Assembly: GCA_021768625.1 (NCBI GenBank)
Contig: JAETUM010000004.1
Coordinates: 11,738 to 75,737, forward strand
DNA: 64,000 nucleotides
Source of the DNA: Candidatus Stoquefichus sp.
GTDB lineage: Bacteria; Bacillota_I; Bacilli_A; Erysipelotrichales; Coprobacillaceae
Direction: 5' to 3'
The translations under genes were made by a program, and so were the position numbers. This document shows positions 19,367 through 60,147 of the stretch, in pieces; the first letter of the stretch is position 1, and each line of letters begins with the position of its first letter. Below the pieces are notes generated by a model that was not told the DNA's origin, did not search any database, and saw only the letters and a list, made by a program, of their open reading frames with translations.

Positions 19367-19442
19367 CTCTCCTTAGCTCAGCTGGCAGAGCATCTGACTC
19401 TTAATCAGAGGGTCCACGGTTCGAACCCGTGAGGGGAGACCA
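19367..19442 (+). tRNA. tRNA-Lys (anticodon CTT)
   Basis: Hand-folded cloverleaf. Acceptor CTCTCCT/AGGGGAG (one G-U), D arm GCTC-AGCTGGCA-GAGC, anticodon stem TCTGA/TCAGA with loop CTCTTAA, T arm CACGG-TTCGAAC-CCGTG, encoded CCA. 76 nt. Confidence 0.85.
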
Positions 19443-20627: not shown

Positions 20628-20718
20628 GGAGACATACTCAAGAGGCTGAAGAGGCGCCCCTGCTAAGGGTGTAGGTCGGGAAACTGGCGCGAGGGTTCAA
20701 ATCCCTCTGTCTCCGCCA
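20628..20718 (+). tRNA. tRNA-Ser (anticodon GCT), type II with long variable arm
   Basis: Acceptor GGAGACA/TGTCTCC. Anticodon stem CGCCC/GGGTG with loop CTGCTAA. Long variable arm (TAGGTCGGGAAACTGGCGC). T arm GAGGG-TTCAAAT-CCCTC. Encoded GCCA end. 91 nt. Confidence 0.9.
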
Positions 20719-20878: not shown

Positions 20879-21811
20879 ATGCTATCAGATAATCAATATT
20901 TGCATTTTGAAACGATTGATTCGTATGAAGATGCAAAGGAATTTATAAAAGACAAGAATATATATTCCCCACATAAAAATTATGAAAGGGAAATGGAAAA
21001 TATACTGAGCTATAAGAAGACTCACATGAAGAAATATAAAAAAAGAAAGAATGGAAAATCAGCTTATAGAAATATCTTTGCATATTATCTTCAGGTGATG
21101 ATTCCTTATGAAATAGATGAAAAAAACTATCACGAATTTACAAATAGATTCATGATATCTATTTCAAAAAAATTTAAACGATTGTTGTATCTTTATTATT
21201 TCGAAAAGAAAGGTAAAGGGACATATGTCAATATTATGTGTTTTACCAGGTATGCCTATAAGAGAGATCATACCTTTACAAAACTGTATAGAAGAGACTT
21301 TTGTTATAACAAAGATACAAAAAAATTGTGTTCAAAAGATGATCCAAATGCAGTTATTGTACATAAAGCTAAAACACCAGTATTTGATGAGAGTGGTAAG
21401 AAGATAAGAGTAAAACGAAAGGTCCAGATGGTTGAAGAAGAAATATTTAAATATTCTTCTTTCAAAAAATTTGTTCAGAAGCTGAAGGATAAATTGAAGA
21501 AAGTTATCCAGGGTATGACAGTGAATTGGTTTTCTAGAGTAGTTATAGCCAAGATGACTGTTAAGCAAGAAGATACAGATGAAGTAAGATTTACAAAATA
21601 TAAAAGGAACCAATACATTAGCTCCATAAATTCAATAATCCAGGAATACCAGGAGAAACTATTGAGTAAATATTCAAACACAGATCAGATCTATGAGGAT
21701 TTTTTAGAAATGATTAATGAAGTGGATGAAATGGTATATACAAATGCAATTGCATTTAAAAAGATTAAAGATTACATGAATGAATGGTGGTTAAAAGCTG
21801 ATATTGATTAA
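20879..21811 (+). CDS. hypothetical protein, possibly replication/mobilisation-associated
   Basis: 310-aa basic protein, first gene of the element, upstream of a structured non-coding region and parA. No catalytic motif (no HUH or His triad) recognised. Confidence 0.5.
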   Translation: MLSDNQYLHFETIDSYEDAKEFIKDKNIYSPHKNYEREMENILSYKKTHMKKYKKRKNGKSAYRNIFAYYLQVMIPYEIDEKNYHEFTNRFMISISKKFKRLLYLYYFEKKGKGTYVNIMCFTRYAYKRDHTFTKLYRRDFCYNKDTKKLCSKDDPNAVIVHKAKTPVFDESGKKIRVKRKVQMVEEEIFKYSSFKKFVQKLKDKLKKVIQGMTVNWFSRVVIAKMTVKQEDTDEVRFTKYKRNQYISSINSIIQEYQEKLLSKYSNTDQIYEDFLEMINEVDEMVYTNAIAFKKIKDYMNEWWLKADID

Positions 21812-22208
21812 TTTCAGCCTATTTAAGGACATTATAGTTTCTATCTTTTAATAGGCTGAAATAGCCTGAGAACATTGAAAACTGAATAGTATGGTGAGTA
21901 CGAAAACTAACTAATTGGAGCTGGATATACTTATACGCCATGACATTCATCTATATGCAGAAAAATGCACTTAAGTGAGATGAATAGAGCGATCAGAAAA
22001 AAATATAAGATATATCGTTATTCTATCGAAATAATAGCCATGATAATTAGGATAATAATGATACATGCATGACGGTTTCAGCAAAGCTGATGTAATACGT
22101 GGTGACAGCTATAGCATAGCTGAAGCGAACTTTTACAATGGACTGTATACCTTGTAACAGTGCTTTTGGACAGAACGATAAACTGTCGCTCATCATACAT
22201 TATATTTA
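21812..22208 (+). other. ~400-bp ORF-free, hairpin-rich, relatively GC-richer region (candidate origin or ncRNA)
   Basis: No ORF of 60 codons or more on either strand. 11-bp arms TTCAGCCTATT / AATAGGCTGAA (21813-21860), with a competing AGGCT-GAAAT-AGCCT hairpin. Several more 5-8-bp stem-loops. Contains CAATGGAC-TGTATACC at 22136-22151. Confidence 0.4.
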
Positions 22209-22254
22209 TTAAATTACTTATAAATTAAAATGAAACGATTTATAAGTAATTTAA
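22209..22254. promoter_or_regulatory. 16-bp perfect inverted repeat directly upstream of the parA SD (candidate operator)
   Basis: TTAAATTACTTATAAA (22209-22224), 14-nt spacer, TTTATAAGTAATTTAA (22239-22254). The SD GGGGAGG starts 2 nt later. Confidence 0.5.
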
Positions 22255-22270
22255 TGGGGAGGAACAAACT

Positions 22271-23128
22271 ATGGAAGTAATAAGTATAATAAGTGAAAAA
22301 GGTGGTATGGGAAAAACTACCACTTCCGTTAATTTAGGAGTTGGACTTTCAAGAAAAGGAAAAAGAGTATTAATCGTGGATGGAGATCCACAAGGAAATA
22401 GTACAAGCTATTTCTCAAAGGTTTATCATAAGTTAGATTTAAAAGAGTTCAATACATTGTCTATTCCAGATTCACCAACTCCAAGACAAGCAACTACTTT
22501 TTTGAAGAATTACATTAAGGATAGTTCTTCAAATCTTAAAGATATTAATAATGTATTATTAGAAAACAAGGAAGTTATTCATGAATGTATATATTCAACG
22601 GAATATCCTAATGTAGACATTATTCCGTCGTTTGGAACAGAGCTAATTAAAACAGATAAATTAATTGCCTCATCAACAAGATTGGCTCATAAGAAGCTTA
22701 AAAACGCTTTAAGAGAGGTCAGAAAAGAATATGATGTCGTTGTTATAGACAATGCTCCAACATTTAACAATATAACTGTAAATAGCTTATTTGCAAGCAG
22801 TAAGATAATTATTCCATTAAAGCCAGGACTCTTTGAACTGGATGGATTTATCAACACATTAAATGAATTGTATGATTTTGAGGATGATTATGAGTGTAAC
22901 TATGAAATAAAGATTTTGATGAACATGATTCCTAGAGGAAATAGACCAGATTATCAACGTTTTATAGCAAAAATCAAGGAATTGTACCCTGATTATGTTT
23001 TTAATACAACAATAGGCTATCAGGATGCCGTTGCATCACGTAGTAGTATGAAAACTAAGCTATTAATTGATTCAAAATCTAAACTAAGTGAGGATTATCT
23101 CAATTTAATTGAAGAGATTGAGATATAA
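22271..23128 (+). CDS. parA: ParA/Soj-family partition ATPase
   Basis: Deviant Walker A SEKGGMGKTTT at residues 9-19, DGDPQGN, and a VVIDNAP Walker B-like motif. Confidence 0.85.
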   Translation: MEVISIISEKGGMGKTTTSVNLGVGLSRKGKRVLIVDGDPQGNSTSYFSKVYHKLDLKEFNTLSIPDSPTPRQATTFLKNYIKDSSSNLKDINNVLLENKEVIHECIYSTEYPNVDIIPSFGTELIKTDKLIASSTRLAHKKLKNALREVRKEYDVVVIDNAPTFNNITVNSLFASSKIIIPLKPGLFELDGFINTLNELYDFEDDYECNYEIKILMNMIPRGNRPDYQRFIAKIKELYPDYVFNTTIGYQDAVASRSSMKTKLLIDSKSKLSEDYLNLIEEIEI

Positions 23129-23283
23129 AAAACATTAAAGAAAGTCTTTAATGTCAATTTAAAATCAAATCAATTACATCCTTACTAAAAACATTAAAGG
23201 TCTCCTTTAATGTCAATTTAAAATCAAATCAATTACATCCTTACTAAAAACATTAAAGGTCTCCTTTAATGTCAATTTAAAAT
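23129..23283. repeat. 2.5 tandem copies of a 59-bp repeat, each with an internal 8-9-bp inverted repeat
   Basis: CATTAAAG begins at 23133, 23192 and 23251 (period 59). Unit core CATTAAAGG-TCT-CCTTTAATG, followed by TCAATTTAAAATCAAATCAATTACATCCTTACTAAAAA. Lies between parA and the parB-like gene. Confidence 0.85.
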
Positions 23284-23321
23284 AAAGATTAGCAATTAAT
23301 AAGAAAAGAGGTAGATAAGCT

Positions 23322-24008
23322 ATGCTTAAAGAAATAATAAAGCAAGAGAGAAAGATGAATACTAGACCAGTATATAAGACGATTGATATTGATGATATCA
23401 TTGCCAATGAATTAAATAATAAAAATCGAATAAGAAATATTGATTATTTAAAAGAAAATATAAAGTGTTGTGGACTTTTAAAACCATTAGAAGTATATGA
23501 TAACTATGATGGAACTTTCACTTTGATTGGTGGAGAAAGACGTTACACAGCATTAAGAAGTTTAGTGGATGAAGATGAATATGATCCAGAAATTCCTTGT
23601 TTGGTTCATGGTGTTAAAGATAAAGCTGAAGAACTGATAAAATTACATATGTCAAATGCTCAGGAGGAAATGAGTGAGGAAGATAAAATAATCATTACAA
23701 AAGATTTGATAAATGTATTGAAAACAAAACCAGAGTTAAAACCTTCAGGAACTGATCTAAGAGATTGGATAGCTACCTTTCTAGGTTGCAAAGGAAGAAC
23801 AGCACAAAAATATATTAACATTGTTAAAGGTGTGGAGCCAAAGAAAAAAGAAAAGGATACAACAGATTATAGTTATGCTACAACGTTATTAAGAGATAGA
23901 CTTAGAACTAAAGTTAAAATCAACAATGGCAAAGTTGCCATCTATTTCAATAACATTGATGATTTAAATAATATACTTAATGAAATGGGTATGATGGAAG
24001 ATGTTTAA
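23322..24008 (+). CDS. parB: ParB/KorB/Spo0J-like protein (ParB N-terminal domain)
   Basis: LKPLEVYD...FTLIGGERRYTALRSL matches the ParB GERR (CTP-binding) box. C-terminal ...NNGKVAIYFNNIDDLNNILNEMG resembles Spo0J/Noc C-termini. An alternative start at M12 (23355) is possible. Confidence 0.75.
   Translation: MLKEIIKQERKMNTRPVYKTIDIDDIIANELNNKNRIRNIDYLKENIKCCGLLKPLEVYDNYDGTFTLIGGERRYTALRSLVDEDEYDPEIPCLVHGVKDKAEELIKLHMSNAQEEMSEEDKIIITKDLINVLKTKPELKPSGTDLRDWIATFLGCKGRTAQKYINIVKGVEPKKKEKDTTDYSYATTLLRDRLRTKVKINNGKVAIYFNNIDDLNNILNEMGMMEDV
23926..23941. repeat. element palindrome copy (ATGGCAAAGTTGCCAT) inside the parB-like CDS
   Basis: Perfect 7+2+7 palindrome encoding NGKVAI near the 3' end of the parB-like gene. 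Confidence 0.9.
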
Positions 24009-52059: not shown

Positions 52060-53079
52060 ATGAAAAAGTTAGTGTCGATATTTATAGGAACTATTCTTAC
52101 AATTGCTATTTTATTATCTTCGTTGATTGGTGGAATATGTGGTAGTGATCAAGAATCAGTTGATCCAGGTAATGATACATTAAGCACTGAAGTTCTTAAT
52201 TATGGACCAACGATTATATTGTATGCTCAAGAATATGAAATGAGTGATTATGTAAATTTAATTCAAGCAGTCATGATGCAAGAATCAGGTGGAAGAGGAA
52301 TGGATCCTATGCAGTCCTCAGAGGGTCCATTTAATAAAAAATATCCCAAGGTTCATAATGGGATTACTGATCCTAATTATTCAATTGAATGTGGAATCCA
52401 GGAATTAAAAAGCTGTCTAAATGCTGCAAAGGTAAGAAGTGCTTCGGACTTAGAAAGGATCTCATTAGCATTACAAGGTTATAATTTTGGAAATGGCTAT
52501 ATTAAATGGGCTGTTAAAAATTATGGTGGCTATTCTAAAAGTAATGCTAAAACATTTTCAAATATGTATAAAGCAAAATTAAATGTTAAAGTGTATGGAG
52601 ATCCTAATTATGTCCCACACGTAATGAGATATTATTCAGTGTTCGGAGAAACAGATATTTCCAAATTAACAGAAGTATCACAAAAAATTCTTGCAATTGC
52701 AAAATCTAAATTAAACTGTCCATATCATTGGGGAAAAAGTGGCCCAGATCAATTTGATTGTTCTGGATTGGTATATTATTGTTTGAGCCACGCTGGAGTT
52801 AAAGGTTCGAGATCAACAGCAAGTGGTTATTCAAAACAGTTTAAGACCATTTCCTATTCTTCATTACAACCAGGAGATTTAATTACAATTTCCTATGATG
52901 GAAAAACAGTTTCGCATATTGGTATTTATGCAGGTGATGGAAAAATGATACATGCTTCAGGAGAAGGTTCAACATGTTTAGGAAATCATGTTGAAAGAGG
53001 TCATGTTGTAAAATATGGTGATGTGAGTAAAGGCAGTTTCTTTTTTAAACATATTTATAACTGTAAAAGAGTTCAATAA
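52060..53079 (+). CDS. bifunctional cell-wall hydrolase (lysozyme/SLT-like + NlpC/P60)
   Basis: N-terminal TM. LIQAVMMQESGGRGMDPMQSSEG (lytic transglycosylase-like). C-terminal CPYHWGKSGPDQFDCSGLVYY...HIGIY...IHAS (NlpC/P60 Cys-His). Typical of conjugative peptidoglycan hydrolases (TcpG/PrgK/Orf14 class). Confidence 0.85.
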   Translation: MKKLVSIFIGTILTIAILLSSLIGGICGSDQESVDPGNDTLSTEVLNYGPTIILYAQEYEMSDYVNLIQAVMMQESGGRGMDPMQSSEGPFNKKYPKVHNGITDPNYSIECGIQELKSCLNAAKVRSASDLERISLALQGYNFGNGYIKWAVKNYGGYSKSNAKTFSNMYKAKLNVKVYGDPNYVPHVMRYYSVFGETDISKLTEVSQKILAIAKSKLNCPYHWGKSGPDQFDCSGLVYYCLSHAGVKGSRSTASGYSKQFKTISYSSLQPGDLITISYDGKTVSHIGIYAGDGKMIHASGEGSTCLGNHVERGHVVKYGDVSKGSFFFKHIYNCKRVQ

Positions 53080-53082
53080 AAC

Positions 53083-53253
53083 GGTATACTTTTCGGTATA
53101 CCTGTGTATTACAGTTTGGTATACCTCTTTAATTACCTCTAAACCCTTGAAAATCAACGTTGTTGATTTGTCCAAATGGATTTTGGTATACCGAGGTGTA
53201 TGACAAAATCCCTTATCCTGCTACAGACAAAACGGTATACCTTTTGGTATACC
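53083..53253. repeat. array of six GGTATAC(C) palindromic boxes plus a 7-bp inverted repeat (candidate oriT / RHH operator region)
   Basis: Boxes at 53083, 53095, 53118, 53185, 53234 and 53246. Two 25-bp modules, AAAACGGTATACTTTTCGGTATACC and AAAACGGTATACCTTTTGGTATACC, lie 151 bp apart. Inverted repeat AATCAAC-GTT-GTTGATT at 53152-53168. Confidence 0.6.
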
Positions 53254-53303
53254 ATTTTGCGGTTTTATGGAATTTATGTTAAAAATGGGAGGAGTGAATT
53301 TTC

Positions 53304-53663
53304 TTGAAAAAGGTATTACAAATTAAAATTGATCATGAAGTATATGAAATGTTTGAATATGTTTATCAAACAGAAAGAGTAAAAGAATCGAAATTAACGA
53401 AGAAAGAAGTTATGGAAAAAATAATTAAATTTTATGTGCAAAATCACTTTATAGAAAGTGGTGATTCAACAGCTCCTTCTAACGCAAGTGTCACTGATGA
53501 AATTTTACTTAAACTATATGAATATGTCTTATTGCTGGTGAAAGCAAATACAAATCTTCCACCAAAAGATGAAGTGGCTAAAATGAAAAAATATGTAGAA
53601 TCTCCATCAAGGTTTGATAAATTCATTAATGAGAAAATTGCAAAAGAAATGAAGAATCAATAA
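53304..53663 (+). CDS. ribbon-helix-helix-like protein (candidate relaxosome accessory factor/regulator)
   Basis: TTG start with GGGAGGAG SD. N-terminal KVLQIKIDHEVYEMFEYVYQTE...LTKKEVMEKIIKFY fits a beta-strand/helix/helix RHH layout. Confidence 0.45.
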   Translation: MKKVLQIKIDHEVYEMFEYVYQTERVKESKLTKKEVMEKIIKFYVQNHFIESGDSTAPSNASVTDEILLKLYEYVLLLVKANTNLPPKDEVAKMKKYVESPSRFDKFINEKIAKEMKNQ

Positions 53664-53727
53664 AGAAGGTGATAGTATTTCTAAGACGAACAAAAGTTAT
53701 AGAGTAACTGATAACTTCATAAAAAAA

Positions 53728-53949
53728 ATGAAGTTGATTGAAGATTGGTACAAGGAATCAGGAGTACAAAAAAATAAGGCTGAGTTGTTGGATGAGATGA
53801 TTGATTTATATTATGTTCATTTATTTTCTAATGAAGATGTTTTAGCAGCACAAGTTCATGTGTTATGTGTTAATCTATTAAAACAAGTTAATGAACAAAA
53901 TGCAATTTTTTATAATTCGATTTTAGAAGAAATAAAAAAATCTCTCTAA
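53728..53949 (+). CDS. small hypothetical protein (possible second RHH-like accessory factor)
   Basis: 73-aa ORF. The frame is open upstream to 53669 (…KSYRVTDNFIKKMKLIEDWY…) but has no canonical start there. Confidence 0.4.
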   Translation: MKLIEDWYKESGVQKNKAELLDEMIDLYYVHLFSNEDVLAAQVHVLCVNLLKQVNEQNAIFYNSILEEIKKSL

Positions 53950-53976: not shown

Positions 53977-54006
53977 ACATGAAAAAAATAGGAGGTGTTT
54001 AAGAAG

Positions 54007-55041
54007 GTGGGAATTGAAGAATTTTTTAAATATATTACGCAAGTACCTTTATCAAATATTGATTTTCCTATAACAATAAATAATGTTAAGCCAAATGAAA
54101 GTTTGAATTATTCTTTGTCTATAACTTCATTGTTTTCTTTTTTACTGTTGAAAGATTATATGTTTTATCCTAAAATAATGTATAATGGTGATATATTAAT
54201 AACAGGAGAGAATGATATGAAAGAAAAATTATATTATTTTAGAATTCCTTATAATTCAAGAGAAAAGTATATTGATATTGTTTATGATGTTAATAACATG
54301 ATTTCTCATTCTGGATATTGTGAATTAAATGTTAATAACATTCCAGGTCATTTAGACTCAATACTTGCTTTTATTGATGGTGAAAATAACGTGAGTAAAA
54401 TCAGACAATATTTAATATCTAATGGTATTTATTTATGTGAAGATATGACATTCAAAGATTTAATGATTGCTAAATCAAAAAAACAATGGTCAGGAACTAC
54501 TCTTGTTCCTAATATGCCTAAAAATGAGATAGAAGAAATTTTTGGATACTTATATTTTTTTAAAAGTGATGAACAATTACAACAAGATGGTTATTCTTTC
54601 GAAAAAGAATATAAGCCTAAAGTTTTTATTTCTTATTCATGGAAGGACGATAATTATGTTAAAGAGTTTGCAGATATATTAATGGCTTCAGATATTAATA
54701 TCTGGATAGATAAGAAAGATATAGAGGGTGGAAATCATATTTTGCAAAGCATTATGGAAGGAATAGAAGAATGCGATATGGCAATCTTTTTTATAAGTAA
54801 TGCTTTTAAAAACTCTATTATTGGGAAACGTGAACTAGTAACATTCTTCACTAATGTTACTTTGGGTAAAAAACAGTGGAGAATATGTAAAATTGATGAT
54901 GTTGATCCTGATGATATCTTTCCTTCTTTAAGTCAATATAAGTATATTGAATGGCAGAATAGGGAAGAATTGTTAGAAAGTGTATATAGAGGAATAGATA
55001 AAATAAAGGAACAACACAAAATAAAAAAACACAATTTCTAA
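54007..55041 (+). CDS. TIR-domain protein with ~200-aa unknown N-terminal domain
   Basis: C-terminal KVFISYSWKDDNYVKEFADILMASDINIWIDKKDIEGGNHILQSIMEGIEECDMAIFFISNAFKNSIIGKRELVTFF follows the bacterial TIR pattern (FISYS, W.D, the conserved Glu in ...RE(L)...). GTG 54007 is preferred over the track GTG 53995, which overlaps the AGGAGG SD. Confidence 0.7.
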   Translation: MGIEEFFKYITQVPLSNIDFPITINNVKPNESLNYSLSITSLFSFLLLKDYMFYPKIMYNGDILITGENDMKEKLYYFRIPYNSREKYIDIVYDVNNMISHSGYCELNVNNIPGHLDSILAFIDGENNVSKIRQYLISNGIYLCEDMTFKDLMIAKSKKQWSGTTLVPNMPKNEIEEIFGYLYFFKSDEQLQQDGYSFEKEYKPKVFISYSWKDDNYVKEFADILMASDINIWIDKKDIEGGNHILQSIMEGIEECDMAIFFISNAFKNSIIGKRELVTFFTNVTLGKKQWRICKIDDVDPDDIFPSLSQYKYIEWQNREELLESVYRGIDKIKEQHKIKKHNF

Positions 55042-55184: not shown

Positions 55185-56000
55185 ATGAAACAGTTAGAAC
55201 TATTAGATGTTCCAGAATCTGCTATGGAAATTTTACAATCAAAAGGTTTTTGTATAAGTAGTAAAGAAGATAAGTTTATTGTTACTTATAATTGCTCTAA
55301 AGAAACATTGAAATTTAAAAATAAAAAAGAAATTTCATTTTGGGTTAATAATTACTTATATTATTATTTCACTTATGAAAAATATAATTTATTTATAAAT
55401 AATAAATTAAACCTGGATGATTGTTTAAAGTATTATAAAAATGTTGTTGATTTTAATCGATATGTTAATAATGATGAATTAAATCATCTTATAGATGAGA
55501 TAGAAGTATATATATCTAAAATAATAAATGATTATCAAAAAGAAATTAATAAGCGTATAAGAATTGAACCATTTTATTTTTATTTATTAGATGAAGAAAT
55601 TTATAACAAAGATTATCCAAAATTGTATCCTAAGAAAAGTACAAGGCCTTTTCTTTTGTATAAAAAAGAATTGGACAGTAATATTCTTTGGTTGATACCA
55701 ATATCTAGAGCACCAAACAAGAAGTATGAAAAACTTCTTAGCAATGAGAAAAAAGCTATTATAAAATATTCAATTGTGAAAACAAGTTGTTATATTTTAA
55801 TTCAAAATATAATTCCTATAAATGAAAAGTATATTAAATCAAGGTTTTTATATAATGGTATTCACATACATATTAAGAATAAAGAAGTAATGAGAAATAT
55901 TCATAAGAAAGCAGAGAGAACTCTTGCTATGATTAAATACGATAAATATTATTTTTCTAGCGAGATAAAAAAGATGTATTTATCTCAAAGTGAAAAGTAA
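55185..56000 (+). CDS. protein with C-terminal ToxN/AbiQ-like (type III toxin endoribonuclease-like) domain and ~130-aa N-terminal extension
   Basis: Residues ~130-270 (FYFYLLDEEIYNKDYPKLYPKKSTRPFLLYKKELDSNILWLIPISRAPNKKYEKLL...CYILIQNIIPINEKYI) parallel the remembered ToxN/AbiQ layout (FYTIS.KYI.YL...KAFIGIVLEI....YLAPLTSPKK...LINLKFMIPI.E). Pattern match by eye only. Confidence 0.4.
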   Translation: MKQLELLDVPESAMEILQSKGFCISSKEDKFIVTYNCSKETLKFKNKKEISFWVNNYLYYYFTYEKYNLFINNKLNLDDCLKYYKNVVDFNRYVNNDELNHLIDEIEVYISKIINDYQKEINKRIRIEPFYFYLLDEEIYNKDYPKLYPKKSTRPFLLYKKELDSNILWLIPISRAPNKKYEKLLSNEKKAIIKYSIVKTSCYILIQNIIPINEKYIKSRFLYNGIHIHIKNKEVMRNIHKKAERTLAMIKYDKYYFSSEIKKMYLSQSEK

Positions 56001-56049: not shown

Positions 56050-57213
56050 ATGAAAATTGGAACATTTAGATTTGCAGAATACGGAAAACAAGCTCCTAAA
56101 AATTCACGTTTTAAAGGAACTATAGATACAGAATCTTTACTAGGGTGGAGTGAATATACTGATAGAGAGGAAGCTAAGGATCATGAGAAGGAATTGAATA
56201 AGAGAGATGATGGTTTTTTTGGGTATACTCAATCTCATACTCTAGAAAAAACAATGAGTTCAATTGGATTTATAGAACATGGTGAAAACGAAAAAAGAAA
56301 AGAGTTTAGAAAAATGATTGCAGCATCATTTCATAAGAAAGGAAATCTCTTTTTTGATACTGTTATTAGTGTTGAGAATTTTGCGGAATTAGAAGAGTGT
56401 GGAATTCGTTCTGTAGAAGATTGGAATATTATTGTCAATAATGCAATGAAGAAATTTATTAAAACATTGGATTTGGATTATCAAAATATTATCTGGTGGG
56501 CTGACTCACATAATAATACAGAAAATCCACATATACATCTTACATTCTTAGAAAAAGAACAAACAAGAACTAGAGGGAAAATAACACCAGAACAATTAGC
56601 AGCGTTCAAAAGATATTTCTTTACAGAAATATCTGCACGAAAAAAATTAGAGAAAGAATTTAAGAAACCATATCAAGAGGTTTTTAAAGATAAAGATATC
56701 CAATTTAAGGAAATCCTTAATAATGCAGATAATGTTTTATCAAAGAATAAAGTAACTCTTAACAATTTATATAGATATTTACCAAAACAAGGAAGATTAC
56801 AATATAACTCATATAACTTTAAACCTTATAGACATTATATTGATGATATTATTAATGATATTATTTTAAAAGATAAAGATGTACAAAAATCACTTGATAA
56901 ATGGATGAATACATTAGAAATGTTTGAACAGATTATTAATGACAATGCTCATGATATAGCTACAATCAAAGAAGCTGAAATGAAAAAGTTGTATGAACAG
57001 ATTGGAAATAAAATATTAAAGTATTACAAAAAATCAAATTATATTGAGGTAATTAAAAAGGGAAAGAATGGTAAGACATATCATAAGCTCATTAAAAAAA
57101 GAAAAATCACAAGAAATAGTCTTGCTTATGATATAAGTAGATCAGCTGAAAATGAAAGTTATAGATTAGAATTAGAGATAGAGGAGTTTTTAAGAGCATA
57201 TCACTTAAGTTAA
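56050..57213 (+). CDS. conjugative relaxase (MobL-like, His-triad relaxase domain)
   Basis: N-terminal relaxase fold with the HxDxxxPHxH-type metal motif WWADSHNNTENPHIHLTF. Size and basic helical C-terminus are consistent with Firmicutes MobL (pLS20 Rel-type) relaxases. The family assignment is tentative. Confidence 0.7.
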   Translation: MKIGTFRFAEYGKQAPKNSRFKGTIDTESLLGWSEYTDREEAKDHEKELNKRDDGFFGYTQSHTLEKTMSSIGFIEHGENEKRKEFRKMIAASFHKKGNLFFDTVISVENFAELEECGIRSVEDWNIIVNNAMKKFIKTLDLDYQNIIWWADSHNNTENPHIHLTFLEKEQTRTRGKITPEQLAAFKRYFFTEISARKKLEKEFKKPYQEVFKDKDIQFKEILNNADNVLSKNKVTLNNLYRYLPKQGRLQYNSYNFKPYRHYIDDIINDIILKDKDVQKSLDKWMNTLEMFEQIINDNAHDIATIKEAEMKKLYEQIGNKILKYYKKSNYIEVIKKGKNGKTYHKLIKKRKITRNSLAYDISRSAENESYRLELEIEEFLRAYHLS

Positions 57214-58099: not shown

Positions 58100-58128
58100 G
58101 TTGTTTTATTTAAAGAATGGAGAAATTT

Positions 58129-60147
58129 ATGAAGAAGTTAACACAGATTATTATTGCTACTATTATATCAATGGTTTTGATATATTTTCTTGGAATTCAA
58201 TTTATAAATATGTGGGTTTATAAAAAATTTAATATAAGTTATGACTATTCATTGTTATTTTTTAGGGGAAATTTATATTTCTTAATATTAACCTTTCTTT
58301 CTACTATACCAGCATGGTGTATATTTTTTAATGATATTTTTAGAAAGAAAATAAAATATAACAATTCTTACAGTACAATGCAAAGTCAGAGGGATATAAA
58401 AAAGAATCTAATTCTTATTCATTTTAATAGAAATGGACTTTATATAACTCCTTTAGATAAAATAAAAATACTAAAAAATGAGATGAAATTGAATTTGGAA
58501 AAAAGTTTTTATAATTTTTATTTAAATAATGAATCCTTATATTGGTTGCATTTACAAGATATAAAATTTAAAAAAATGAAAAAATATAAGGTCGGAGATG
58601 AAGAAACCTATTTTAGAACAGGATTACCAATAATTACTAAGACAGGAAAAATATGGTGTGATCCAACAGACAGTCATTCTTTGATTGTTGGAACAACTAA
58701 TTCTGGTAAAACATTTAGTATTATACTTATACTTATTCAATTAACACGTTTAGCAAAGCAATCCGCTGTTATAGTTGATGTTAAAGGGGAGTTATCAAGG
58801 ATGACTGCTCAAGATTTTATAAATGATGGCTATACAACATATTTTATTGACTTTATAACACCTGAAAGTAGTGATTGTTGGAATCCATTACATTTAGCAG
58901 CCATTGAATGGAAAAAAGAGAATGAAAGAATTGAAAAAGAAAAAGCGAGAATAGTGGAATTACTAAATGAGAAAGAAAAGATACATCATTTACATTATGG
59001 TGATAGTATACCATTTGATCCATATAAAGCTATAGGAAACAATGAGAATGGCGATCCTTTAATTAACCCAGTAACTGGAGAAATTTTAACATATCCAGAT
59101 TATTCAAAAGCAAGTGAATATATTATAGATGTATGTAATTCGATTTGCGATGATCCAACCGCAAAGGAAAAGGTATGGAATAATATGGCTAGTAGGTTAA
59201 TGAGAGGTATTATCTACTTATTAATGGAAGAGGGAAATGAAGAATTTATCAATTTTGAATCAGTAAAAAGGATTTTGGATTTAGGAGATTTGCCTATTCC
59301 TGGTACTAAAAGTACTTACTTAAAAGAATATGTATATAAATACAGAAAAGCAGGTGATTTATCTTATGAAACACTAAGTGAATATTTAGAAGCTCCAGCG
59401 ACAACTAAAAACTCTATTAAGAGTGTTTTTGGTGAAAGGATTGATGCAATAATTTTATCTCAACAGATTAAGAATATGACAGCTAAAAATGATATAGACT
59501 TTGAAAATATTGGCAATAAAAAAACAGTTATATTTTTAAAGGTACATGATGAAAAATCAACATATTATCCTTTGGTTAATTTATTTATGAGACAATTTTG
59601 TGAGGTGCAGATAAAATTAGCAAGAAAAAATCCTAAAGAAAGATTAAGAGTACCAATCGATATTATTTGGGATGAGTTTGGAAATTCACCAACATATGAA
59701 GGAATAAAAAACCTTTTGACAGCAGGAAGATCAAGAGGTATTAGAGTGACAATGGTTATACAAGGATATGACCAATTAAATGAAAAGTATGGGGATAATG
59801 GAGCTAAAACAATAAAAAACAACTGTATGAATACAGTTTATCTATTAAGTGGAGACAATATGACATTGAAAGAGATAAGTGATAGATGTGGTACCAAGAA
59901 AGTTTATAGAAATGGAAAAGAAGAAAATGAACCAGTTTTTACAATTGACAGATTGTCTCACTTTAAATTAGGAGAAGCATTGTTTTTAAGACAGAGGGAA
60001 AATCCTTTTTTCACAAAACTAAAAGCCTATGATAAATATAGAATTTATAAAAGAGAAGCAAATTATGTAGGACAGCCAAAACCTAAGCCTATAGCAAAAG
60101 GCTGGGATATAAAAAAAGCATATGCTTTTAAACAATTTAAAAAGTAA
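58129..60147 (+). CDS. type IV coupling protein (VirD4/TraG/PcfC-like)
   Basis: Two N-terminal TM helices. Walker A VGTTNSGKT, Walker B IIWDEFGN. ATG 58129 is preferred (GGAGA SD 5 nt upstream) over 58117. Confidence 0.85.
   Translation: MKKLTQIIIATIISMVLIYFLGIQFINMWVYKKFNISYDYSLLFFRGNLYFLILTFLSTIPAWCIFFNDIFRKKIKYNNSYSTMQSQRDIKKNLILIHFNRNGLYITPLDKIKILKNEMKLNLEKSFYNFYLNNESLYWLHLQDIKFKKMKKYKVGDEETYFRTGLPIITKTGKIWCDPTDSHSLIVGTTNSGKTFSIILILIQLTRLAKQSAVIVDVKGELSRMTAQDFINDGYTTYFIDFITPESSDCWNPLHLAAIEWKKENERIEKEKARIVELLNEKEKIHHLHYGDSIPFDPYKAIGNNENGDPLINPVTGEILTYPDYSKASEYIIDVCNSICDDPTAKEKVWNNMASRLMRGIIYLLMEEGNEEFINFESVKRILDLGDLPIPGTKSTYLKEYVYKYRKAGDLSYETLSEYLEAPATTKNSIKSVFGERIDAIILSQQIKNMTAKNDIDFENIGNKKTVIFLKVHDEKSTYYPLVNLFMRQFCEVQIKLARKNPKERLRVPIDIIWDEFGNSPTYEGIKNLLTAGRSRGIRVTMVIQGYDQLNEKYGDNGAKTIKNNCMNTVYLLSGDNMTLKEISDRCGTKKVYRNGKEENEPVFTIDRLSHFKLGEALFLRQRENPFFTKLKAYDKYRIYKREANYVGQPKPKPIAKGWDIKKAYAFKQFKK

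Follow-up and report, generated by a model that had tools for sequence, protein, structure and literature searches.

A candidate origin of transfer with a MOBP-type nick motif and palindromic boxes in an integrated conjugative element of Candidatus Stoquefichus

The window, a 64,000-nucleotide stretch of Candidatus Stoquefichus sp. DNA, probably contains the origin of transfer (oriT) of an integrated conjugative element of this gut Gram-positive bacterium at positions 53078-53253. Judged from the sequence, the product of the first of two downstream small genes (RHH1) would occupy an array of palindromic boxes in this region, and a MobL relaxase would nick at the conserved core that the boxes surround. 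This reading is supported by the conserved core with its MOBP octamer, by the linkage of an RHH2 homologue and a MobL relaxase gene on the same strand, and by the single match of the core model in the window. The first-pass annotation had proposed a candidate oriT with relaxosome accessory factors here; the conserved core, the gene linkage and every comparative test support that proposal.

The box array and the two-hairpin core

The array is carried by a 224-bp spacer that separates the first small ORF (53304) from a cell-wall hydrolase gene (52060-53079). The features of the spacer are as follows.

53083..53102, no strand: boxes 1 and 2 (GGTATACT and GGTATACC), the left doublet, with a centre spacing of 12 bp, within the 25-nt module 53078-53102
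53118..53125, no strand: box 3 (GGTATACC), single, 23 bp after box 2 and ~99 bp 5' of the predicted nick, conserved in L063
53151..53169, + strand: hairpin 1, AAATCAAC-GTT-GTTGATTT, with an 8-bp stem, followed by the conserved spacer TTGTCCA; folds in 12 of 12 representatives
53178..53211, + strand: hairpin 2, GGATTTTGGTATAC...GTATGACAAAATCC, single-stranded DNA (ssDNA) fold z = -4.6; variable in sequence, with pairing kept
53185-53192, no strand: box 4, inside hairpin 2, near its tip
53211..53222, + strand: invariant core CCTTATCCTGCT, the columns of which are invariant in alignment A1
53234..53253, no strand: boxes 5 and 6 (GGTATACC twice), the right doublet, with a centre spacing of 12 bp, within the module 53229-53253
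53257..53285, + strand: weak promoter-like site (TTGCGG, 17 nt, TGT-TAAAAA), recognized by eye directly after box 6; low confidence

Six copies of GGTATAC start at positions 53083, 53095, 53118, 53185, 53234, and 53246 (53083-53253), of which the last five are the full palindrome GGTATACC and the first is GGTATACT. The six GGTATAC(C) boxes that had been reported in an intergenic region of ~220 bp were thus recovered at matching coordinates, and their number is far beyond chance. In the window, 16 strand-matches to GGTATAC were found against 2.3 expected, a count reached in 0 of 100 shuffles, and the six array sites contributed 11 of the 16. Genome-wide, there are 34 perfect GGTATACC sites in 2.92 Mb, five of them inside 159 bp at the array, where an arithmetic estimate gives ~0.002 sites per stretch of this length. 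No second cluster of GGTATACC was found across the whole 2.92-Mb genome. The two 25-bp modules described earlier as lying 151 bp apart were also confirmed; they are 92% identical, and the module pattern has no further occurrence in the genome. A terminator at boxes 1 and 2 was considered and rejected, as the stem consists of two adjoining palindromes and L063 has no T-run at this place.

The first-pass annotation had also placed a 7-bp inverted repeat between the modules. The repeat is present, but it is 8 bp long with a 3-nt loop and corresponds to hairpin 1. The larger hairpin, which holds box 4, and the nick-like motif at 53211-53222 were absent from that annotation.

Approximately 26 distinct versions of the core between boxes were collected from other genomes and metagenomes. 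A core pattern constructed from two anchors detected 13 stretches in genome contigs, two of which were chance matches in coding DNA, and a slightly looser pattern detected 42 stretches in metagenome contigs, again with two chance matches. The real core loci therefore number 11 genomic and ~40 metagenomic. All 12 representatives that were folded take the same ssDNA shape with two hairpins (z from -2.9 to -7.6), in the shared order hairpin 1, 7-9 unpaired bases, hairpin 2, 1-3 bases, and CTTATCCTGCT. Hairpin 2 varies in sequence and length between elements, and a first MAFFT alignment (A1) placed its short and long forms out of register; a covariance-model alignment was used instead. In this alignment, which was fitted to the covariance model and hence leans to structure, 84% of the cells were paired, and none of 500 shuffles was as high; the independent single-sequence folds concur. 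As a control, the partner was slid by 1-3 columns, and pairing was then only 36-56%.

Compensatory changes were observed in both hairpins. Across 25 sequences, pairing in hairpin 1 was 100%, one pair covarying as CG, AU, and GC, and in hairpin 2 both sides were changed across relatives in 10 of the 11 modelled pairs. Divergent cores have TGAGC-GTT-GCTCA as hairpin 1, with two pairs changed on both sides, and still keep CCTTATCCTG. In L005 and L006, loci of Erysipelotrichaceae metagenome-assembled genomes whose relaxase is 70% identical to that of the window, the two anchors of the pattern, GAAAATCAACGTTGTTGATTTGTCCAAA and CCTTATCCTGCTA, are retained, as is an imperfect hairpin. The covariance model matches the window at 53147-53229 only, and TTATCCTGC occurs in the window exactly once.

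The octamer TATCCTGC (53214-53221) is invariant in 25 relatives, identical to the nick octamer of RP4 and tfs4, and in agreement with the MOBP nick-region consensus, (C/T)ATCCTG(C/T), for which the canonical layout is an inverted repeat just 5' of the nick (PMC3772185). The same octamer is cleaved in the oriT of RP4 and in that of Helicobacter pylori tfs4 (PMC3772185). We predict a nick on the + strand between G53220 and C53221, 9 nt 3' of the end of hairpin 2 (53211), which places the inverted repeat as in a MOBP-type oriT. The strand and position of this nick are the least certain part of the explanation because the pLS20 oriT does not match the covariance model. An alternative oriT at 21.8-22.2 kb, which the first-pass annotation had named as a place where oriT might map instead, was rejected; that segment is the spacer from an unknown ORF to parA/parB and has no match to the covariance model.

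Relaxase, accessory genes and distribution of the core

Upstream of the array lie genes for a VirB4-like ATPase and for the lysozyme/NlpC-P60 hydrolase. The genes downstream of the array are as follows.

53304..53663, + strand: RHH1 gene, 119 aa from a TTG start; accessory protein predicted to bind the boxes
53677..53949, + strand: RHH2 gene, 90 aa from ATT 53677; putative second accessory protein with a long C-terminal helix
53995..55041, + strand: TIR-domain gene (PF13676, E 1.1e-16), cargo located after the accessory genes and before the relaxase gene
55185..56000, + strand: 271-aa CptIN-like gene (NCBIfam NF047359, E 1.5e-12, 47.6 bits, below the cut-off of 90)
56050..57213, + strand: MobL relaxase gene (PF18555, E 4.8e-19, 69.1 bits against a cut-off of 28.5)
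58117..60147, + strand: type IV coupling protein gene (PF02534, E 1e-40)

A further ORF of 267 aa lies between the relaxase and coupling protein genes on the + strand. The TIR gene is missing in L003, and L063 has a 35%-identical TIR gene in the same slot. The CptIN-like gene is kept between RHH2 and the relaxase gene in the sub-lineage of the window, with homologues in L003, L005, and L007. The element appears to begin after tRNA-Lys (19.4 kb) and tRNA-Ser (20.6 kb), followed by parA/parB at 22.3-24.0 kb; an exact-word search detected no att repeats linking the tRNA end with the right end.

The PF18555 match bears out the earlier report of a MobL-like relaxase gene downstream in the same orientation. 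The relaxase is 27% identical to RelLS20 of pLS20 (BLASTP E 8e-10), and its HNNTENPHIH motif aligns with HYNTDNIHVH. Its Tyr36 stands opposite Tyr26, the proposed catalytic residue of RelLS20 (PMC5313138). The scores against the NCBIfam models MobP3 (102.5 bits, cut-off 150) and MobP2 (74.6 bits, cut-off 200) were both below cut-off. On Bacillus plasmids, distant homologues of the relaxase carry MobP2 annotations, and pLS20 is typed as MOBP by MOB-suite.

The sub-threshold MobP2 and MobP3 scores leave some room for the reading that the region is an oriT in which the nick lies on the - strand, as in pLS20, or elsewhere, and CCTTATCCTGCT is a binding site rather than the cleavage site. However, the - strand has no conservation among the relatives outside the boxes, whereas an invariant, single-stranded-looking + strand segment directly 3' of a covarying hairpin has the known geometry of a nick region, and its octamer is the very one that is cleaved in RP4 and tfs4 (PMC3772185). 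We regard a nick elsewhere as quite improbable and retain the + strand prediction.

The first-pass annotation had stated that two genes for small proteins come next. Two small ORFs do follow the array, but the second most likely starts at ATT 53677 rather than at 53728. In ORF lists, RHH2 starts at ATG 53728 (73 aa). Its frame is open from 53653, and a strong ribosome-binding site, GAAGGTGAT, precedes ATT 53677. Alignment with the homologues extends over the 17 codons that precede the ATG (KSYRVTDNFIKK vs KSFRASENFIKK and others), where L003 departs from the window by a single synonymous change and an in-frame 3-nt indel. These results indicate that RHH2 most likely starts at ATT 53677 and is predicted to have 90 aa.

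AF2 models of both proteins as monomers have an extended N-terminus followed by helices. In RHH1 (pLDDT 65), the helices span residues 11-27 and 33-48, with further helices behind them; in RHH2 (pLDDT 81), they span residues 12-27, 34-51, and 53-89, the last being a C-terminal helix of 37 residues. The two family profiles align with each other over the first 55 residues (hhalign 83%, E 8e-6). Five of 10 RHH1 family members match PF01402 (RHH_1) at residues 6-42, almost the whole model, with scores below the cut-off of 20.5 (14-18 bits where shown; best E 1.5e-4). No Pfam match was obtained for RHH1 or RHH2 of the window, PF01402 included in the case of RHH1. Profile searches with both families against PDB sequences gave nothing, and Foldseek with both models gave nothing significant, the TraM DNA-binding domain (1dp3) appearing only at E ~4. 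Both small proteins are thus likely, although not proven, to be RHH-like at the N-terminus. A word-based protein search with RHH1 reached only one relative (90% identity), and the remainder of the family was reached via synteny.

No homology of either profile to pLS20 Aux1 or Aux2 was detected by hhalign (probability ≤1%), a comparison of low power as the pLS20 side consisted of single sequences. Given these negative comparisons with both proteins, predicted membership of RHH1 and RHH2 in the Aux1/Aux2 family is not supported, although the layout and the presumed role match.

Among 301 genomes of the host's order, representing 101 genera, the covariance model detected the core in 23 genomes and 15 genera. 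There was no real core match in PLSDB, and no close DNA relatives were found on plasmids, where weak matches were obtained for the hydrolase gene only. Local tblastn searches covered all loci, and nearly every locus with enough flank has a MobL relaxase gene (+0.67 to +3.4 kb from the core) and an RHH2 homologue (+0.34 to +1.6 kb), each on the same strand as the core. The pair of RHH1 and RHH2 genes also comes after the core in relatives, and L011 has the bare order of core, RHH1, RHH2, relaxase, and coupling protein. Two exceptions were observed: in L007, the core is placed after the RHH2 homologue, and in L077, the relaxase gene is divergent. Six cores (L008, L012, L015, L022, L034, and L048) are orphans, with no accessory or relaxase genes within 3-5 kb. 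That some cores are without nearby accessory genes was counted against the reading of oriT plus accessory genes.

Arrays of repeats in front of their own genes are targets of RHH proteins, ParG, omega, and many antitoxins among them. By this general precedent, the array could be a centromere-like partition site or a toxin-antitoxin operator for an RHH protein, unrelated to transfer. However, there is no partition ATPase or toxin gene next to the array, parA/parB lying at the coordinates given above, and the array always surrounds a nick-like core linked to a MobL relaxase gene. We consider a role in partition or as an antitoxin operator very unlikely, and an oriT remains the preferred reading.

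The boxes across lineages and their predicted reader

The nearest relatives, L003 and L004 (RHH1 90% identical), retain all boxes. L063, Thomasclavelia saccharogumia DSM 17460, is distant, with a relaxase 52% and a hydrolase 28% identical to those of the window, and its spacer also contains six GTATACC boxes. Their spacing is 13, 23, 68, 48, and 12 bp, compared with 12, 23, 67, 49, and 12 bp in the window. When the window and L063 were aligned, the islands of identity were the boxes, hairpin 1, and the nick core, and the bases between them were diverged. The position of boxes 1 and 2 is unchanged in both L003 and L063, with divergent flanking bases. Hairpin 2 of L063 has its outer stem flipped (GGAAAATG/CATTTTCC, vs GGATTTTG/CAAAATCC in the window) but keeps GTATACC of box 4. 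This identity footprint shows selection on the boxes. As box 4 lies in hairpin 2, it could be conserved for the sake of the relaxase and not of RHH1.

Other lineages have other repeats. No GGTATACC boxes were found in L005 or L006, and L005 has GTCGC/GTGACA repeats instead. The core is flanked by GTATAC(A/G) palindromic repeats in L010 and L020, by TGTATACA palindromic repeats in L012, and by GTGGTAC palindromic repeats in L007 and L018. On these alignments, the boxes are lineage-specific around a shared core.

The identities of the proteins to those of the window were compared in two relatives as follows.

L005, box type different: relaxase 70%, coupling protein 68%, VirB4 79%, RHH2 58%, RHH1 30-32%
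L063, box type same: relaxase 52%, coupling protein 38%, VirB4 54%, RHH2 38-40%, RHH1 36-38%

RHH1 is the outlier in identity exactly where the boxes change (L005); its identity tracks the box type and not the relaxase phylogeny, which the divergence of RHH2 does track. The predicted strand of RHH1 is LQIKID in the window and LQIRCE in L063, and CQVRMN, ITIRCQ, or INFRSD in lineages with other boxes. Since RHH1 alone is strongly diverged where the boxes are replaced and RHH2 follows the relaxase, RHH1 is the likely box binder, a prediction held with moderate confidence as it draws on few independent lineages.

In the mechanism that we propose, the relaxase substrate would be the + strand segment comprising hairpin 1, the short spacer, hairpin 2, and CCTTATCCTGCT. 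The MobL relaxase, probably with Tyr36 as the catalytic residue, would cut after TATCCTG (53220/53221), remaining on the 5' end. Transfer of the + strand would follow, led by the accessory and relaxase genes, and the hairpins would enter the recipient last, where they could serve termination. RHH1 dimers are expected to occupy the six GGTATACC palindromes that frame the core, and the 12-bp doublets would give room for side-by-side dimer pairs. The resulting nucleoprotein complex of ~170 bp may give the element its own oriT specificity and help the relaxase to the nick site. RHH2, which is more conserved than RHH1, would be a second accessory factor, perhaps on a conserved part of the core. RHH1 on boxes 5 and 6 may in addition repress its own weak promoter. 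The sequence features, with their conservation and covariation, and the gene linkage are shown, whereas binding, the position and strand of cleavage, and the direction of transfer are all inferred.

Such repression could also be the only function of the boxes, which would then be operators through which RHH1 or another repressor controls the relaxosome genes, with the core alone serving as oriT. Palindromes just upstream of a small RHH-like gene are the usual layout of an autorepressor. Boxes 5 and 6 abut the promoter-like TTGCGG-17-TGTTAAAAA, which is retained in L003, and one box in L010 and L011 overlaps the translation start of RHH1, both its ribosome-binding site and its start codon. However, a consensus scan reported no + strand promoter in the spacer, and neither L063 nor L011 shows an evident counterpart of the promoter-like site. 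On the 5' side of the nick there are four of the six boxes, at distances of up to 134 bp and remote from any start site, one of them within hairpin 2. The orphan core L012 is boxed on both sides and has no small gene next to it, and Aux1 of pLS20, which is essential for transfer, binds a similar palindrome (PMC5675868). An operator function alone is therefore unlikely in our estimate. Dual use is common, and boxes 5 and 6 may plausibly serve autoregulation as well; this would be more an addition to the oriT reading than an alternative to it.

On the oriT reading, the nick core may tentatively be seen as a "socket" shared by elements of gut Erysipelotrichales, each RHH1/box pair as an exchangeable private key to the use of the oriT, and boxed orphan cores such as L012 as minimal hitchhikers tuned to a helper; we offer this as a doubtful but possible extension. 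If true, it would provide a natural system for the evolution of oriT specificity, in which the accessory module is swapped and the catalytic site is fixed. The analysis places a predicted transfer origin for a family of conjugative elements present in ~8% of the sampled genomes of the host's order, predicts its nick at single-base resolution, and points to candidate determinants of specificity. The core pattern is usable for annotating oriTs, orphans included, in gut metagenomes, and thereby for judging which islands are mobilisable. The locus is a well-formed but ordinary kind of transfer system; its main points are the base-level prediction of a MOBP-type nick for MobL, the apparent swapping of accessory protein and boxes around a fixed core, and the orphan cores.

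Comparison with known relaxosomes

The first-pass annotation had likened the locus to pLS20 of Bacillus subtilis (MOBL), in which oriT precedes two RHH auxiliary genes and the MobL relaxase gene. The layout is as described: in both, an oriT (putative here), two small genes for proteins with RHH-type N-termini (likely here), and a MobL relaxase gene follow one another within a transfer cluster. Aux1 of pLS20, whose tetramer is essential for transfer, binds a 25-bp stretch with TGGTACCA ~100 bp from nic (PMC5675868). The half-sites are identical in the box of the window, TGGTATACCA, which has two more bases at its centre. By contrast, pLS20 has one Aux1 site and three TGTGCAT repeats where the window has six boxes. 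The nick of pLS20 is GC-rich and on the template strand (PMC5313138), whereas the nick predicted here is of the MOBP type, with ATCCTG on the coding strand, and the core covariance model has no match at the pLS20 oriT locus (L065), the sequence of which differs. In addition, cargo genes precede the relaxase gene here, unlike in pLS20, and the element is chromosomal, while pLS20 is a plasmid. Taken at the level of sequence, the comparison suggests that in part of the MobL family the nick site is a classical MOBP-type ATCCTG motif and sits on the other strand than in pLS20. Few MobL oriTs beyond pLS20 are known.

RP4 (IncP, MOBP) shares with the window the nick octamer TATCCTGC and an inverted repeat ending 8-9 nt 5' of the nick. 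Its accessory proteins bind both sides of nic, and traK lies just downstream of nic on the nicked strand. However, RP4 is a Gram-negative plasmid with a relaxase (TraI) of another Pfam family, its accessory proteins TraJ and TraK are unrelated in sequence to those of the window, and its oriT has one hairpin rather than two. The VirD2 oriT of H. pylori tfs4 resembles the window: it is chromosomal, it precedes the relaxase gene, and an inverted repeat adjoins TATCCTGC on the 5' side. Its cleavage depends on ATCCTG, and its relaxase stands outside the classical MOBP family (PMC3772185). Unlike the window, tfs4 lacks a box array, its relaxase is of another family, and it has a partner of the VirC1 type in place of RHH proteins.

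TraM and TraY of the F plasmid and PcfF of pCF10 are small proteins with an N-terminal RHH that act on repeated oriT sites, as proposed here for RHH1, although neither a sequence match nor a significant fold match to the small proteins of the window was obtained. PcfF is described as an RHH relaxosome accessory factor (PMC6514445). TraM has a C-terminal helical tetramerisation domain, and a similar one is predicted by the model of RHH2; Aux2 of pLS20 is described as a TraM analogue (PMC8829557).

Core placement and orphan cores

Placement of the core relative to its own genes varies between loci, as illustrated by two of them.

Core placement in two loci carrying the core
L007 1-924: core preceded by the RHH2 homologue and followed downstream by an XRE-type gene
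L077: core with the relaxase gene divergent from it

Furthermore, cores consisting of the two hairpins and CTTATCCTGCT were detected in L008, L012, L015, L022, L034, and L048 with RHH and relaxase genes absent within 3-5 kb. In L012, this orphan core retains TGTATACA boxes on each flank. Such orphan cores could represent mobilisable islands that carry only an oriT, or else relics.

The core was also compared with the pLS20 oriT (L065 13680-13830). On the coding strand, the pLS20 region contains the Aux1 box TGGTACCA, two short hairpins, and CCCCTTATGCTC in this order, an arrangement that bears a faint likeness to the window core and is situated upstream of the nick mapped on the template strand. 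Because a covariance model of the core gave no match at L065 13680-13830, this likeness may be a coincidence.

RHH2 start and genes preceding the relaxase gene

ORF callers place the start of the second small gene, RHH2, which encodes a predicted accessory protein, wrongly within its reading frame (window 53653-53949). The start is most likely the rare codon ATT at 53677, which is preceded by GAAGGTGAT and gives a product of 90 aa. The N-terminus read from this codon (KSYRVTDNF...) is kept in relatives.

After RHH2, the window carries a TIR-domain gene (53995-55041) that is missing in the closest relative (L003 4649-4867). In the distantly related Thomasclavelia saccharogumia DSM 17460 locus, a TIR gene 35% identical to that of the window occupies the same slot (L063 4763-5791). 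The slot looks like a cargo hotspot and is predicted to lie in the DNA that would enter the recipient first. The following gene (window 55185-56000) encodes a 271-aa protein that matched the type III toxin CptIN model with an E value of 1.5e-12, under the cut-off. In L003, L005, and L007 as well, a conserved copy of this gene separates RHH2 from the relaxase gene, so it is a stable part of the sub-lineage rather than recent cargo.

Element ends and a dispersed palindrome family

The right end of the element lies at 63.3-63.5 kb, adjoining an integrase gene. An exact-word search for a direct repeat joining the tRNA-side end to this right end found none.

Features at the tRNA-side end of the element and example palindrome sites (window coordinates)
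19367-19442: tRNA-Lys, preceding the element
20628-20718: tRNA-Ser, preceding the element
20879-24008: first element genes, a 310-aa ORF followed by parA and parB
53953, 55050, 56008, and 57216: sites of the palindrome AAATGGCAAnnTTGCCATTT

The palindrome family AAATGGCAAnnTTGCCATTT comprises 14 sites across the element (window 23924-62147), which are mostly intergenic; the site at 23924 is inside the parB ORF (listed 23322-24008). These palindromes are possibly terminators or a protein site. GGCA-N4-TGCC palindromes resembling this family were also found in related loci, beside orphan cores, and in the interval that separates the boxes from the RHH1 gene in L063.
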